Below, in pieces: positions 1-16,565 of a stretch of 64,000 nucleotides of DNA. The DNA lies in assembly GCF_011045215.1 (NCBI RefSeq), contig NZ_CP049201.1; one strand, given 5' to 3'. The stretch comes from Escherichia coli (GTDB lineage: Bacteria; Pseudomonadota; Gammaproteobacteria; Enterobacterales; Enterobacteriaceae). The notes beneath the pieces are model-generated. The model had not been told where the DNA came from and did no database searches. It saw only the letters and a list, made by a program, of their open reading frames with translations. The position numbers were made by a program, and so were the translations under genes. How positions within the stretch are numbered: the stretch's first letter is position 1; every line of letters begins with the position of its first letter.

Positions 1-573
1 GAGGTAGTTGAAAATTACTGGACTGCTATCCTTCATACTAATATGACGAATGAGCATTTTGGCTTTGAAATCGCCTAATGAATAGCAAATTTCAAAAATA
101 CCGTGACCCTGGTTATCTCTGTGGTTTATATCGCAACCGGCCTGTACCATCAAATCAAAGATAGAGTGATTTTTTACGTAAAAAAGTATTGTTCTTCCGC
201 ATTTATCCACATTGTTGACATTAATTCCAGCATTGATCAGGGTTTTGCAACAGGATATATTATCAGCTAACGAGCATAAACAGGTTTGGCCGAGACCATT
301 TTTATGGTGTATATCTACGCCGGAATCAATCAATTTTTTCAGTATGTGAGGATTTCGCTGGTTAAACAAAACATTGTGACCATAGTTGTCAGCATGGTTA
401 AAATCTATTCCTGCTTTAACCAGAGTGTCAATCATTCTTGGGTTTTTACAGTAAAACAGTATATTTCTTCCAAACGAATCCAGTGTATTAATATCGGAGC
501 CTGCATTAATGCAAGCCTGAATGTCTTTTGGAGTTTTACAAGAGAGTAATGTATTTATTGCGTTGTTATTCAT
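1..573 (-). CDS. Ankyrin-repeat protein, partial (start codon at 573-571, C-terminus runs past window start)
   Basis: Minus-strand ATG at 573 preceded by AGGAG-like RBS; my translation MNNNAINTLL... shows repeated ankyrin-like units (DxxGxTxL, NxxDxxGxT); not in ORF track because no stop inside window. Confidence 0.55.
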   Translation of the reverse strand, partial: MNNNAINTLLSCKTPKDIQACINAGSDINTLDSFGRNILFYCKNPRMIDTLVKAGIDFNHADNYGHNVLFNQRNPHILKKLIDSGVDIHHKNGLGQTCLCSLADNISCCKTLINAGINVNNVDKCGRTILFYVKNHSIFDLMVQAGCDINHRDNQGHGIFEICYSLGDFKAKMLIRHISMKDSSPVIFNYL

Positions 574-588
574 AATTTTTCTCCTCTG

Positions 589-1029
589 TTAAGCGACTAA
601 TCTGATATAGTTGTCATGGTTGGTTTTATATTCCTTTATTTTTTTAATGTCTTCGTAAATTCGAGCGAGTGAAAACCATGAGATCTCTTTCAACATGTTT
701 TTGTTGCTTACATACAAAATGTTACCACCGCGAAATGAAAAAGCATTATGGAATGTACTTTCATTCGTCGTTTTGAGAAATCGAATGAAATTTTTTATTG
801 TCTCTTTTTTGTTCATGTTATAAGAGGTGAATGTATAGATAGAGAATACGGTTAAAATATTTCTCTTCGAGACCATATGTCTTGAGAAATAATCGAAATA
901 AAATCTTTGCTCCTGAGTGTCACTTTTGCAGAAAAAAGAAAATTGTGGATTATATAATCTATAAAGATCTGCGTTCTTTTTTGTTTTGGCGAGATAGTTA
1001 GTCAGGCTTGGATATTTTGTTTTATTCAT
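589..1029 (-). CDS. Hypothetical protein, 146 aa, immediately upstream of the ankyrin gene
   Basis: ORF track; 16-nt gap to downstream ankyrin gene suggests co-transcription; no domain recognised. Confidence 0.4.
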   Translation of the reverse strand: MNKTKYPSLTNYLAKTKKNADLYRLYNPQFSFFCKSDTQEQRFYFDYFSRHMVSKRNILTVFSIYTFTSYNMNKKETIKNFIRFLKTTNESTFHNAFSFRGGNILYVSNKNMLKEISWFSLARIYEDIKKIKEYKTNHDNYIRLVA

Positions 1030-1690
1030 TTTAGTTCTCCTTTATTTAATTAACAAAGGAAATATATATTATTAAATAAACAAAATGCAAATATATTTTT
1101 ATATTTATTTAATTAAATAGTTATATTTTTATTATATTTCATATAAGGTGTTGTTTTTCATTGTTATTTTATTTTTATCAAAAAGTGCTGTGTTTTATTT
1201 GATTGATTTGGTTTGAGAGTAGTGATTGATATAGTATGAATTGGCGATGAGGGTGTTTTAAAAAATAAATTTATCAAAGTGCAAAGGTGCAATGTGGGGC
1301 TTTGTATTAAATTAATGATGTTAGCGCCCCTTGGCTATCTAACTAAAGGTTAAAGCCAAGGGGAGAGTGTTCAGGCAGATTCAATTCATAATCTTTTTTT
1401 TGTAATTGCTTTACAGGTAACTGGTTGAAGCGTTGTTCGTAAAACCTTTTGCTCTCTCTGTAATTTGTCCTGGAGGATTTCTTCATAAAAGTAGCGTTCT
1501 TTTAGCGATTCTATATCAACTTTTATATCATTACGTATTAACCATTTAATTAGCAGTCTTCCTGCATAGTGCGTCAGTAGATATGTACTGCTTATGTAAA
1601 ACCAAACATGACTAATGTCTGTCAGCTTCTTTAGTTGTAAAATTAATTTTTTAGCGTCGGCATTTGTTGGTGTTATGATACATTTATCAC

Positions 1691-2371
1691 TTATCTCAAA
1701 TTCATTTTTTGTTTTATAAGCAATGACAACAGCTCAATTGATTTAAATGTAATGTTCTTGAGTACAATTTTTGAACTATTTGTAAGGTGAATATTACGGA
1801 TAAAAAAGCGCATGTAGTTATCATTTTTAGATTCCCAGTGCGTATATTTACCAACTATGCTATTATTTTCTGACTGCCAGTGATCGAATGCTGTCTGTCC
1901 ACTTATATTTTTATGATTAATGTCGCAACCAGCCTCAATTAGTGCATCGTACACATATCCTTCAAATGGAATGAAAAGAAAGGAATTGCCATATCTATCT
2001 TTGGTATGGATATCTAGTCCTGCTTTGATAAGATATTTTACTAACCCTGGTGAAACATCAATATGTTGAATCGCAAGGGTGCCTGACTTATTCCGGTGGT
2101 TAACATTAATACCATTGCTGACAAGAAGTTCCACTGTTTCAACATTTTGAGCATAGAATAATGCATTATTACCGTCATTATCCAAGTGGTGAATGTCAAT
2201 GTCAGCGTCAATCATTGCCTGTATAGCTTCAGGTACATTACAGGTAAAAAGAGCAGTTTGACCTTTACTATTGCACATATTTATATCCATGCCAGCCTTA
2301 AGGCAACGAAGGACACCATTTTTAGACTTTACACGGAATAGGTTATTTTTATTATTTTCTCTTGATATCAT
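1691..2371 (-). CDS. Ankyrin-repeat protein, 226 aa (probably frameshift-truncated, see findings)
   Basis: ORF translation shows about five ankyrin repeats (NSKGQTALF, DNDGNNALFYA, NKSGTLAIQH, DRYGNSFLF, NISGQTAF); very AT-rich. Confidence 0.6.
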   Translation of the reverse strand: MISRENNKNNLFRVKSKNGVLRCLKAGMDINMCNSKGQTALFTCNVPEAIQAMIDADIDIHHLDNDGNNALFYAQNVETVELLVSNGINVNHRNKSGTLAIQHIDVSPGLVKYLIKAGLDIHTKDRYGNSFLFIPFEGYVYDALIEAGCDINHKNISGQTAFDHWQSENNSIVGKYTHWESKNDNYMRFFIRNIHLTNSSKIVLKNITFKSIELLSLLIKQKMNLR

Positions 2372-14696: not shown

Positions 14697-14744
14697 ATGT
14701 GGACTCAATGTCCCCATTTGTAAATGGCTATGCTTAGTCCACAT
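14697..14744. promoter_or_regulatory. Nested palindromic site upstream of the serine recombinase gene (candidate recombination site or operator)
   Basis: Perfect 9-bp inverted repeat atgtggact (14697-14705) / agtccacat (14736-14744) around inner palindrome ccatttgtaaatgg; 172 bp upstream of the recombinase start. Confidence 0.5.
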
Positions 14745-14807
14745 AGGTTAATGGTGTGATTATTAATTCTTTAACTAAATCAAGATAGTTAATCCATCAT
14801 GGGAGAG

Positions 14808-16037
14808 TTATGCGGCAATAACTTTGCATTTTTGAGACGAAACATAGTCACTCCACCATTGCATGAGAACCACCCGTTCAGTGAGATACTCTGCACGATT
14901 GTAGGCTGCAATTATTTCATCTTTCTTCGAGTGGGCAAGGGCGGCTTCTAAGACATCAGTCCTAAACTTGCCAGACTCCTCAGCAGCCGTTCTAGCAATG
15001 GATCGCATACCGTGAGCTACAAGCTCACCTCCGAAACCCATACGGATTATGGCCGCATTAGCTGTTTGTTCATGCATGTGATTGAGTGGAGCTTTGATAC
15101 TGGGGAACACCCACTCTCTATGCCCGCTGATGACTTTCATTAAATCCAAAACTCGCAAAGCTTCTTTGCTCAGTGGAACTTTGTGAGGCTTCTTCATTTT
15201 CATAAACTCCGCCGGGATGTTCCACATGCCAGTTTCAATATCAATATCTGACCATCTTGTGCGAACAGCTTCACCTGGGCGAACCCATGTGAGAAGTTGC
15301 CACTCAATCAGTAGCCTTGTTTCCAAACGGATAGAAGCATTGTTTAGAGCAACCAAGAAGCGAGGGAGTTCGGAAGGGGGTAATGCTGGCATATTCTGTT
15401 TTTTTGGCTTGCTGAACCGTTGCCCCAGGTTGTCTGCCGGGTTGAATTCTATGAGTTCTTCTGTTGCTGCATAGCGGAAAATTTCATTCAGGCGGGATAT
15501 GATGCGGCGAAGTGTTTCAAGGACACCTCGTTTTTCTATGGGTTCTAAATGCTGTTTAAGCATTTTAGGGCGAATCTCCTTAATTGGGGTATCACCCAAT
15601 GTGGAAAAGATATTTCTCTCTAGGCTTCGCCAGATGTCGTTAGCATGATCTTGGGAGATGCCTGACGTTTTGACTTTCTCATCAAGCCACTTCTTGGCTA
15701 CTGCTTGAAATGTATGTTCCGTGGCATCTTTCAGTGCATTGGCTTTTTGGTTGTTATGAACTTGGGGGTCTATACCATTTGTAAGCAACGACAAGTATTC
15801 ATCACGTAAAGCTCGTGCCTTCGCAAGTGTAAGGTGAGGATAGGTTCCTAAGCTCACCTTAGTTCGCTTTTTGGTCACAGGCACTGCATATCTGAAATAC
15901 CAATTTTTCTTCCCTCCCTTCGCCAGGGGAGCGATTCGCAACAGCAAACCATCGCCGTCAAAAAGGTTAACCTCTTTTTCGGCAGGTTTGGTGCTTTTGA
16001 TTTCAGTGTCAGTGAGCTTCTTAGCGATTTTGGCCAT
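14808..16037 (-). CDS. int: Site-specific tyrosine integrase (P4-type), next to ssrA
   Basis: ORF 14808..16118; likely start is Met at 16037 (MAKIAKKLTDTEIK...); C-terminal catalytic region with conserved R...H.xR...Y context (HGMRSIARTAAEE...ALAHSKKDEI..AYNRAEY); classic tmRNA-site location. Confidence 0.85.
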   Translation of the reverse strand: MAKIAKKLTDTEIKSTKPAEKEVNLFDGDGLLLRIAPLAKGGKKNWYFRYAVPVTKKRTKVSLGTYPHLTLAKARALRDEYLSLLTNGIDPQVHNNQKANALKDATEHTFQAVAKKWLDEKVKTSGISQDHANDIWRSLERNIFSTLGDTPIKEIRPKMLKQHLEPIEKRGVLETLRRIISRLNEIFRYAATEELIEFNPADNLGQRFSKPKKQNMPALPPSELPRFLVALNNASIRLETRLLIEWQLLTWVRPGEAVRTRWSDIDIETGMWNIPAEFMKMKKPHKVPLSKEALRVLDLMKVISGHREWVFPSIKAPLNHMHEQTANAAIIRMGFGGELVAHGMRSIARTAAEESGKFRTDVLEAALAHSKKDEIIAAYNRAEYLTERVVLMQWWSDYVSSQKCKVIAA

Positions 16038-16203
16038 GTTTGGGACCCTCGATTTTAGGACCCATCTTCGTGGGTCCCATTCAGGGTGCCATAACTCGTA
16101 GTTCTCAGCAATTCTCACTAGACTACAATAGACGTAAAAAAGCCCGCAGAGCTTGTGCTGTGCGGGCTTAGTAGACTTTACTGAACTTCAGTACATCAAT
16201 ATT

Positions 16204-16565
16204 TGGTGGAGCTGGCGGGAGTTGAACCCGCGTCCGAAATTCCTACATCCTCGGTACTACATGCTTAGTCAGTCTTTACATTCGCTTGCCAGCTGCGGAC
16301 GGACACGCCACTAACAAACTAGCCTGATTAAGTTTTAACGCTTCAACCCCAGGCAGGGCTTCCACGCGATCTCTTTTGGGTTTGACCTCTCTTGATCCCC
16401 GTCCTAAGAGCGGAGGCTAGGGAGAGAGGGCTCTAAGCAGGTTATTAAGCTGCTAAAGCGTAGTTTTCGTCGTTTGCGACTATTTTTTGCGGCTTTTTAC
16501 GAGGCCAACCGCCCCTCGGCATGCACCTTGGGTTTCGCAAATCCCGTCGAATCCAGAATCAGCCC
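16204..16565 (-). ncRNA. ssrA: tmRNA (SsrA), transfer-messenger RNA
   Basis: Reverse complement of 16565 downward begins GGGGCTGATTCTGGATTCGACGGG; 3' end ...GCTCCACCA is the reverse complement of 16204-16212; tag ORF ANDENYALAA region recognisable. Confidence 0.95.

Follow-up and report, generated by a model that had tools for sequence, protein, structure and literature searches.

The first 16,203 nucleotides of a 64,000-nucleotide stretch of Escherichia coli DNA (contig NZ_CP049201.1 of assembly GCF_011045215.1; hereafter the window) were found to make up the half nearer to ssrA of a decayed array of island DNA. This array measures about 29 kb and is probably a defence island of the integrative-mobilizable type. 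The array adjoins ssrA, the gene of transfer-messenger RNA (tmRNA), and begins with what we call the head: a P4-type tyrosine integrase, a trio of genes coding for a large serine recombinase (rec) and two ParB/RepB-like proteins (ParB1 and ParB2), and a 0.8-kb spacer. The cargo slot then begins at position 10396, and the tail, with a MOB relaxase, an AlpA-like excision regulator and DUF6387, lies outside the window. The trio is of separate origin, the head is conserved, the cargo slot is variable and the recombinase is atypical; we infer that insertion at ssrA was the work of the tyrosine integrase and not of rec. What is said here of the island itself (integration at ssrA, head and cargo) is put with high confidence. 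The functional reading, in which the trio serves the element as a second module for recombination and maintenance, is offered tentatively, and the two taken together have about an even chance of being right.

A preliminary description of this DNA, made from its letters and open reading frames (ORFs), had proposed a P4-type tyrosine integrase adjoining the tmRNA gene, and this was borne out by ARAGORN, Rfam and the NCBIfam profile PRK09692. The integrase gene, whose longest ORF extends to 16118, scored 444 bits with PRK09692 against a cut-off of 434, and homologous integrases of 409 amino acids (aa), present at the same position in other genera, carry the Arm-DNA-bind_3, Phage_int_M and Phage_integrase domains (PF13356, PF22022 and PF00589). 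The domains, the position beside ssrA and the repeat at the far end are those of a P4-type (IntA/SlpA-like) integrase island. The start of the integrase gene lies 166 bp from the ssrA 3′ end, and its DNA is about 80% identical to the other ssrA integrase lineages in the E. coli collection searched. The core genes smpB, ratA, bamE and recN follow on the right of ssrA. A weak partial match to IsrM, a small RNA (sRNA) of Salmonella islands (Rfam RF02763), was also seen on the minus strand at 16136-16213; its 46 bits fall far below the gathering score of 376. It spans the ssrA 3′ end together with the island-borne terminator, and is probably shared island-junction sequence and not an sRNA gene.

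The locus was compared by megablast with 5,426 complete E. coli genomes, and strain AHB18 (locus L001), which is 99.9% identical to the window with 8 substitutions and 1 indel, was taken as its reference. The 16.5-kb stretch was recovered at a coverage of at least 80% in 256 of these genomes. In AHB18 the foreign DNA spans from glaH to ssrA, about 29 kb. The far att repeat had been expected outside the window, and an upstream search for a direct repeat of the ssrA end had been proposed. In this search a long copy was not obtained: no 25-nt copy of the ssrA end with up to 3 mismatches was present in the 32 kb left of ssrA in AHB18. On the other hand, local alignment revealed a degenerate core, TTGGTGG-GCTGGCG, which matches the ssrA end (its last positions and one flanking base) at 14 of 15 positions. 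It has glaH on one side and a SIR2 gene on the other and is about 13 kb to the left of the first letter of the window, so that the repeat is indeed outside the window. The same copy was found at the chromosomal junction of the complete sister island of strain MLI108K3 (L088), beside ypjA. This degenerate copy is the expected displaced target fragment (attL). The array as a whole seems to be no longer cleanly excisable, because it carries insertion sequence (IS) insertions and its attL is degenerate.

The left part of the AHB18 island consists of an ankyrin gene, an intact IS1B, a relaxase/mobilization gene and a SEN1984-family lipoprotein gene, and further contains a 68-aa AlpA-like helix-turn-helix (HTH) gene, DUF6387, IS3 fragments, another ankyrin gene and the SIR2 gene. 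The relaxase/MOB, AlpA-like HTH and SEN1984-family genes, annotated 1.5-8.5 kb left of the window in AHB18, recur in the sister islands L005, L088 and L089. The island itself is a new member of a familiar class, and hundreds of RefSeq genomes already have it annotated. The tails of the sister islands (L088 5777-10147; L089 282-4652; L005 2914-7654) also contain two adjacent tyrosine recombinase genes and a gene for a large DNA-binding protein; this block, a multi-recombinase unit, is absent from the lineage of AHB18 and the window.

To the left of the integrase, the head was found to be conserved across genera up to a sharp limit. Near-identical recombinases (96-100%) are present in Klebsiella, Enterobacter, Citrobacter, Salmonella and Cronobacter, and the gene order integrase, 282 bp, rec, ParB, ParB was observed in all four genera whose loci were fetched (Klebsiella, Enterobacter, Salmonella and Cronobacter), with smpB called upstream in the Klebsiella and Enterobacter loci. 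In blastn, DNA homology of 97-99.5% ran from inside ssrA to 10396 and stopped at the same base in 4 of 4 genera. Past this base the cargo differs: a UvrA-like ATPase (weak PADLOC match to mad3) with two ThiF/E1-like proteins (weak match to E1-E2) in Klebsiella, Enterobacter and Cronobacter; HNH_5, DUF5677 and DUF6602 proteins in Salmonella; and a type I restriction-modification (R-M) system in the window. A hairpin-rich stretch at 10396-10480 (GAGAAGCAAGGG...CCCTTGCTTTTC, then CTTTTCT...AGAAAAG), which may be a terminator or a recombination hotspot, directly precedes the divergence of cargo in five genera.

A second, inner breakpoint was observed at 11143, 47 bp past parB2, in a lineage with 94% identity. 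Past it come, in this lineage, 24 nt, 290 bp from the 3′ end of a second P4-type integrase gene (77-81% identical) and lastly Hxs/TIGR04141 cargo; no intact copy of the second integrase was found among the 5,426 E. coli genomes. From island to island, heads retain 94-99% identity where the relaxase tails share only 69-78%. With a conserved head, a variable defence slot, a more divergent mobilization tail and scrambling by IS1 and IS3, the label of a mosaic given to this island in the preliminary description is justified. A head-only state also exists in laboratory strains of E. coli B and in BL21 derivatives, as seen in NEBExpress, a derivative of E. coli B (L004 19096-25039), where integrase, rec, ParB and ParB are followed by IS1 and glaH. 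Strains MLI105 and 3PT were considered as trio-less examples and set aside, as they carry IS1-associated deletions and are uninformative on the boundaries of the module.

To follow the trio within E. coli, its DNA (window 11000-14807) was used as a probe, together with a 500-bp junction probe across the integrase 3′ end and the adjoining spacer. The trio DNA occurred at 661 places in 659 genomes, all of them chromosomal and none on a plasmid, with at most two places per genome and a median of one; on enterobacterial plasmids no trio was found, and only the IS3 remnant was matched. The 282-bp junction between integrase and trio was intact in 650 of the 672 genomes that matched the integrase 3′ end probe; strain E24377A matched the 500-bp probe at 100%. 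Furthermore, integrase and trio co-diverge, with lineages of at least 99%, about 98% and about 94% identity for both. One copy of the 94% lineage is located in an island array at argW and not at ssrA, and is still joined to a truncated integrase. The sister ssrA island of MLI108K3 has an integrase 92.6% identical to that of the window and no trio. Homology between the window and this island ends exactly at the integrase stop codon (14807/14808), after which L088 has TIR-domain and KwaB-like cargo and a similar tail. This makes the trio a separable module, and its right end is sharp. The preliminary description had suggested a smaller serine-recombinase element nested within, or fused to, the tyrosine-integrase island. 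Its mosaic nature and separate origin hold, and "fused to" is a fair description since the trio-less sister island breaks at the integrase stop, but no evidence of a nested mobile element was found here. The comparison across strains which it had called for thus showed the trio to be separable (L088), but fixed beside the integrase and never seen to move independently. For E. coli, the findings speak against a nested element that is active.

The recombinase gene opens a translationally coupled operon of three genes with overlapping frames, rec-ParB-ParB. The protein begins with a resolvase catalytic domain (PF00239, E = 1.4e-21) and a "recombinase" domain (PF07508, E = 1.2e-21, residues 210-312, which align with SprA residues 189-299); a helical linker then leads to a PD-(D/E)xK-like fold at the C-terminus. 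Residues Y16, R18, S20, Q24, D87, R90, G92 and R93, which include the serine nucleophile motif and the arginines, were invariant in 29 diverse homologues, and from these residues the enzyme is predicted to be catalytically intact. No zinc ribbon was detected in rec by Pfam, there were no cysteine pairs, and no PDB sequence match was obtained past residue 317. Residues 316-518 (window 12969-13578) were modelled with a predicted local distance difference test (pLDDT) score of 90, and the model matched PD-(D/E)xK nucleases (I-Ssp6803I, Hjc and restriction enzymes); W441, D452, R458, D468 and P473 are conserved in this domain. By this high-confidence prediction, a nuclease-like fold replaces the zinc-ribbon/coiled-coil region of serine integrases. 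The zinc ribbon and coiled coil serve in att-site selection and directionality in those enzymes. Measured against the serine integrases, rec has the catalytic and PF07508 domains, and neither the zinc ribbon/coiled coil nor att sites were found. A large serine recombinase some 300 bp from the integrase, as first described, is thus present (282 bp past the integrase stop), but it is not of the canonical type.

Both ParB1 and ParB2 carry the domains that define ParB proteins, PF02195 and PF07506. ParB1 resembles Spo0J/ParB/Noc structures over its N-terminal and HTH domains, and its motifs GqGRleA and SLvEN.ARR were conserved in 75 homologues. ParB2 is more divergent and carries an LDGH.R motif; we take DGH.R to be typical of nuclease-type ParB/Srx proteins. 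No ParA-like gene was present in the module or among the recurrent neighbour families of 80 related loci. PHROGs places ParB1 and ParB2 in families of "unknown function". With PADLOC v2.0, no family was found for rec, and the N-domains of ParB1 and ParB2 gave marginal methyltransferase-domain matches, and the trio was rejected as one of the anti-phage defence systems catalogued there.

Outside the Enterobacteriaceae the trio proved to be widespread. A HMMER search against 1.84 billion cluster representatives yielded 1,348 clusters (50% identity) of the rec family at E <= 1e-30, many of which align over the full length at 35-48% identity. A wider survey with one genome per species then gave 80 loci from Alpha-, Beta-, Gamma- and Deltaproteobacteria and Bdellovibrionaceae; the trio was complete in 80 of 80 loci wherever the contig was long enough. 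A P4-like integrase was near only 3 of the 80, and a tRNA gene lay within 10 kb in 6 of 60. As the trio is common in Proteobacteria and seldom has a tRNA gene or a P4 integrase next to it, it is a module of separate evolutionary origin. Upstream of rec, a divergent HTH-like gene of about 135 aa was present in 47 loci and a 152-aa cysteine-rich protein in another 17; downstream of parB2 nothing was conserved among the 80 loci, and in related copies homology usually stopped 170-280 bp past parB2. The rec family was also found on 66 PLSDB plasmids, including Agrobacterium pAtC58 and plasmids of Mesorhizobium, Sphingobium and Burkholderia. In pAtC58 the order is AbiEi/AbiEii, a small gene, rec, RepB-like, RepB-like and Fic; homology of the AbiE flank in relatives stops about 20 bp past AbiEii, and other plasmids share only the Fic segment, which starts 48 bp past parB2 of pAtC58. 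A clean empty site was not obtained, the relatives of pAtC58 keeping the AbiE flank with other defence genes after it.

The neighbours downstream of the trio were surveyed by scanning the largest ORF within 3.5 kb past parB2 in 18 independent lineages with PADLOC profiles. Strong defence matches were obtained in 7 of the 18 (DrmD, HmaA, a type I restriction endonuclease, a type I methyltransferase, PDC-S06 twice and PDC-M26A), and ZacABC lies downstream of the trio in an eighth lineage. As a portable cassette, the trio is regularly found bordering on variable defence cargo, as it also is in the E. coli head; most often a small divergent HTH gene accompanies it, and its neighbours are usually defence, toxin-antitoxin (TA) or Abi genes. 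An 11.9-kb segment with the trio and ZacABC was 97.3% identical between a Halothiobacillus metagenome-assembled genome (MAG) and a Pararhodobacter isolate (L026 and L042, both 8396-20261), which is either a very recent transfer between classes or a binning error of the MAG. Among viral contigs, 53 of 57 loci contained the trio, and many IMG/VR "provirus" contigs carry it near an edge, a position that is probably an effect of boundary calling. The idea of the trio as a phage integrase was rejected, a homologue being present in 1 of 50,697 GenBank phage genomes, a 7.5-kb metagenomic record. Small contigs of about 5-6 kb were likewise considered as circular or transposon-like copies and rejected, as they showed neither terminal overlaps nor terminal inverted repeats. 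In the searchable literature, no description of a serine recombinase with two ParB/RepB genes was found.

The recombinase had initially been credited with a palindromic site of its own. An imperfect 50-bp palindrome does exist at 14696-14745, with 24-nt arms that are 75% complementary and a central GT, 171-220 bp upstream of rec, but no tie to rec could be established: in a palindrome scan against shuffles its z was about 0, and a counterpart was absent in most other lineages, so it was rejected as a conserved rec site. No part of the intergenic region varies more than the left arm of this palindrome, and in sister lineages its changes are not compensated. The TATGTGGACT motif was repeated elsewhere only at chance level, and a 12-mer, GACTCAATGTCC, common to 14702-14713 and 11032-11043, exceeded the mean of the shuffles by about 2 standard deviations, no more than chance level. 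In the flanks of the trio, neither direct nor inverted repeats rose above shuffles in 60 loci or in the window, and no repeated palindromic (parS-like) site was detected. Serine integrase sites share only 2 bp, and the absence of repeats is therefore weak evidence against a nested element. In six Rhodobacterales loci (L015, L019, L070, L078, L079 and L087), two 12-bp GCACAATTGTGC-like palindromes, 9 bp apart, were seen at -199 to -166 from the rec start, between rec and the divergent small gene; these pairs look like operators. E. coli has neither the small divergent gene nor GCACAATTGTGC-like sites.

Taken together, these data suggest the following course of events. By the mechanism of its family and the repeats found, the P4-type integrase would have placed the island in the last 15 or so nucleotides of ssrA; the island would then supply a replacement ssrA 3′ end and terminator, and the displaced ssrA end, now degenerate, would mark the far end by glaH. 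In Enterobacteriaceae one copy of the trio became fused immediately behind the integrase of this lineage, and it is now passed on as backbone and not as a nested mobile element. The recombinase would recombine or resolve DNA at a putative site and would not be the enzyme that inserted the island here, and the two ParB/RepB-like proteins could act as site-binding accessory factors which license the reaction or stabilise the excised circle. This role of the trio in recombination and maintenance is put forward with low confidence, and several observations weigh against it. The attL copy matches at only 14 of 15 nucleotides and may or may not stem from this particular integrase; the palindrome, the only candidate site, is weak evidence with nothing linking it to rec; and no recombination site, excision product or rearrangement attributable to rec was found, nor any inversion or deletion polymorphism of the region among the matches listed for the E. 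coli genomes. The trio lacks a ParA partner and is therefore not a classical partition system. The existence of the trio-less sister island means that the trio is not required for this type of island, and the adjacency of defence genes speaks no more for a backbone role than for a defence role.

Three other explanations were weighed against the recombination and maintenance reading. If the trio were a small self-mobile element, inserted by rec downstream of the integrase gene and still able to excise, one would understand its sharp and recurrent ends (14807/14808 against L088, 11143 in the 94% lineage, about 48 bp past parB2 in pAtC58), its unrelated contexts across Proteobacteria, its presence on contigs of about 5.3-5.8 kb in several draft assemblies and the palindrome upstream of rec; the lack of repeats counts for little here, as serine integrases leave at most 2 bp. 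Yet among the E. coli genomes the trio was never found away from this integrase, never on plasmids and at a median of one place; it co-diverges with the integrase and, in five genera, belongs to the part that is conserved up to the cargo breakpoint. No pair of empty and occupied sites was found, the small contigs lack terminal overlaps and terminal inverted repeats, rec has no zinc-ribbon/coiled-coil domain and the family is nearly absent from phage genomes (1 of 50,697), and we regard this explanation as improbable. Equally improbable in our judgement is a purely historical account, silent on function, by which integrase and trio (with the spacer) are a complete minimal island that stood in tandem at ssrA with an older island and was fused to it by deletions. 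The 94% lineage, where the second-integrase fragment lies 24 nt past the trio and is followed by the cargo, relaxase and tail of that island, speaks for it, as do the different identities of heads (94-99%) and tails (69-78%) and the head alone in E. coli B. Against it, no copy of the ssrA end was found between the units, the state of E. coli B is explained by an IS1-associated deletion, the second integrase was seen only as a fragment (0 intact in 5,426 genomes), and in L088, which has no trio, a tail of this kind is combined with an integrase that is closely related.

A defence function deserves somewhat more attention, although it too is unlikely. The trio, with the small HTH gene where that is present, would then be a conflict or defence cassette carried as fixed cargo, in which ParB-like clamps sense foreign DNA and rec, through its nuclease fold, is the effector. 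The AbiE and Fic neighbours in pAtC58, the defence families directly downstream in 8 of 19 lineages, the cassette-like boundaries about 50 bp from gene ends, the layout of a regulator plus an operon, the PD-(D/E)xK-like domain of rec and the DGH.R motif of ParB2 are all consistent with it. However, PADLOC gave no match for rec and only marginal methyltransferase matches for ParB1 and ParB2, and the canonical (D/E)xK lysine is not evident among W441, D452, R458, D468 and P473. We know of no defence system in which a serine recombinase is the effector. Moreover, in Enterobacteriaceae the trio falls within the conserved stretch that ends at the breakpoint, and it is conserved to the same degree as the integrase; its behaviour is therefore that of backbone and not of cargo. 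It is also possible, but doubtful, that the trio is an undescribed and widespread recombination module which forms the carrier or cargo-exchange backbone of compact defence-gene elements, or a new DNA-targeting conflict system. Were either the carrier or the conflict reading right, the breakpoints at 10396 and 11143 might be the sites at which the trio acts, a proposal to which we give similarly limited credence.

The island as such is routine and adds one more example of a defence hotspot at tmRNA, near-complete in 256 genomes and with its head in 650, including E. coli B. The tmRNA locus is E. coli defence hotspot #9, whose occupants include integrative mobilizable elements (Hochhauser et al., 2023, PMC10121019). 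It is the trio that is unusual, as a large conserved family with an architecture unlike that of the serine integrases of genome engineering, located at the edge of defence cargo. Should it move or exchange cargo, the assembly of defence islands would become easier to explain, and if it is a maintenance or conflict system, it would give a new role to ParB proteins without ParA.

Features of the ssrA-proximal island in window coordinates; the second-integrase fragment is given in the coordinates of its own loci
Feature	Position	Strand	Basis and remarks
ssrA (tmRNA gene)	16204-16566	-	ARAGORN, tag ANDENYALAA; Rfam RF00023, 295.8 bits (gathering score 47)
ssrA 3′ end, integration site (attR side)	16204		
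Island-borne spacer between ssrA and integrase	16038-16203	-	Terminator scan: hairpin 16140-16154, now serving ssrA
P4-type tyrosine integrase, 409 aa	14808-16037	-	RefSeq start, WP_001062342.1; transcribed away from ssrA
Spacer between integrase stop and rec start, 282 bp	14526-14807	.	Alignment of three lineages; palindrome within
Atypical large serine recombinase (rec), 518 aa	12969-14525	-	Pfam Resolvase + Recombinase
ParB1, ParB/RepB-like, 298 aa	12083-12979	-	Pfam ParB_N + RepB; TIGR00180, 60 bits; start overlaps rec stop by 11 nt
ParB2, ParB/RepB-like, 298 aa, divergent paralogue	11190-12086	-	Pfam RepB + ParB_N; overlaps ParB1 by 4 nt
AT-rich non-coding spacer of the head	10396-11189	.	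blastn against Klebsiella, Enterobacter, Salmonella and Cronobacter loci
IS3-family transposase remnant (pseudogene)	~9755-10080	+	RefSeq of AHB18: integrase core domain, internal stop, partial; ORF 9755-9961
hsdM, type I R-M methylase subunit (cargo)	8047-9594	-	RefSeq annotation; ORF
hsdS, type I R-M specificity subunit (cargo)	6899-8050	-	RefSeq annotation; ORF
hsdR, type I R-M restriction subunit	3601-6840	-	Two ORFs (379 and 681 aa) against one 3240-nt gene in AHB18
IS1 copy, defective transposase (internal stop)	~2837-3604	+	RefSeq; ORFs 2891-3133 and 3178-3555
Ankyrin-repeat gene, frameshifted	1386-2371	-	987-nt coding sequence (328 aa) in AHB18; 226-aa ORF here
Hypothetical protein, 146 aa	589-1029	-	ORF; 72% similar stretch in Klebsiella and Enterobacter islands
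Second ankyrin-repeat gene, 5′ part, cut by window edge	1-573	-	Island continues about 13 kb leftward
Second-integrase fragment	L089 16325-16592; L005 19712-19954		

The cargo in the window contains all three genes of a type I R-M system, of which hsdR is broken, so that the system is not intact. Relative to AHB18, a G is replaced by A at 5703, which creates a nonsense codon at 5701-5703 and a stop after codon 379. With hsdM and hsdS intact, the premature stop in hsdR leads to the prediction that the strain modifies its DNA without restricting. The IS1 copy, the IS3 remnant and the changes in base composition that had been reported for this stretch were confirmed by the RefSeq annotation of AHB18 and by the GC profile. 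The IS1 of the window is a 95-98% repeat of the intact IS1B in AHB18. GC content is 0.30-0.35 at 1-2500 and at 10000-14500, the region of the trio, and 0.41-0.49 at 2500-10000, except for 0.36-0.39 over hsdS (about 7000-8500), compared with 0.49-0.51 for the core genome. In the island, three to four genes with ankyrin repeats form a cluster. The frameshift in one of them results from a 1-nt deletion at 1705 relative to AHB18, and one ankyrin-repeat gene gave weak matches to the PADLOC candidate PDC-M72A / Ankyrin.

In comparison with known systems, the island resembles P4-type ssrA islands such as CP4-57 of K-12 in its site at the ssrA 3′ end, in the family and orientation of its integrase, in the replacement ssrA end that it carries and in its variable, defence-rich content. 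It differs from them in that rec-ParB-ParB lies directly behind the integrase in this lineage; CP4-57 is, to our knowledge, without this trio. With ROD21-like (EARL) islands or integrative mobilizable elements it shares a P4-like integrase at one end and a small AlpA-like HTH gene near the other, as well as a SEN1984-family gene and a MOB relaxase unaccompanied by a type IV secretion system. EARL islands were defined at Asn-tRNA genes and have type IV pilin and TraD genes, and a serine recombinase/ParB module is not mentioned for them (Pina-Iturbe et al., 2018, PMC6035254). The present island, by contrast, is at ssrA and has its relaxase tail outside the window, and its membership of that group is putative.

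As for the trio, its recombinase is like the large serine integrases (SprA of SPbeta, phiC31, Bxb1, TP901-1, A118, TnpX and CcrAB) in its first two domains, whereas they have a zinc-ribbon/coiled-coil domain at the place of its PD-(D/E)xK-like fold. Its other two members are like the ParB/RepB proteins (Spo0J, Noc, KorB and RepB of repABC plasmids) in the ParB N-terminal and HTH/RepB regions and in the GxxR and ENxxR motifs, which are partly kept in ParB1. They differ from these in being tandem paralogues behind a recombinase, in lacking a ParA/RepA ATPase and in an altered GERR arginine patch (GqGR in ParB1, DGH.R in ParB2). The modules that resolve plasmid multimers (Tn3/gamma-delta res, Sin and RK2 ParA) differ from the trio in that rec, with its additional domains, is over twice as large as a resolvase, and no res-like site array was found beside it. 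Nevertheless, in both a serine recombinase is combined with DNA-binding accessory proteins in the context of plasmid and mobile-element maintenance, and multimer resolution may be the functional analogy that suits the trio best.

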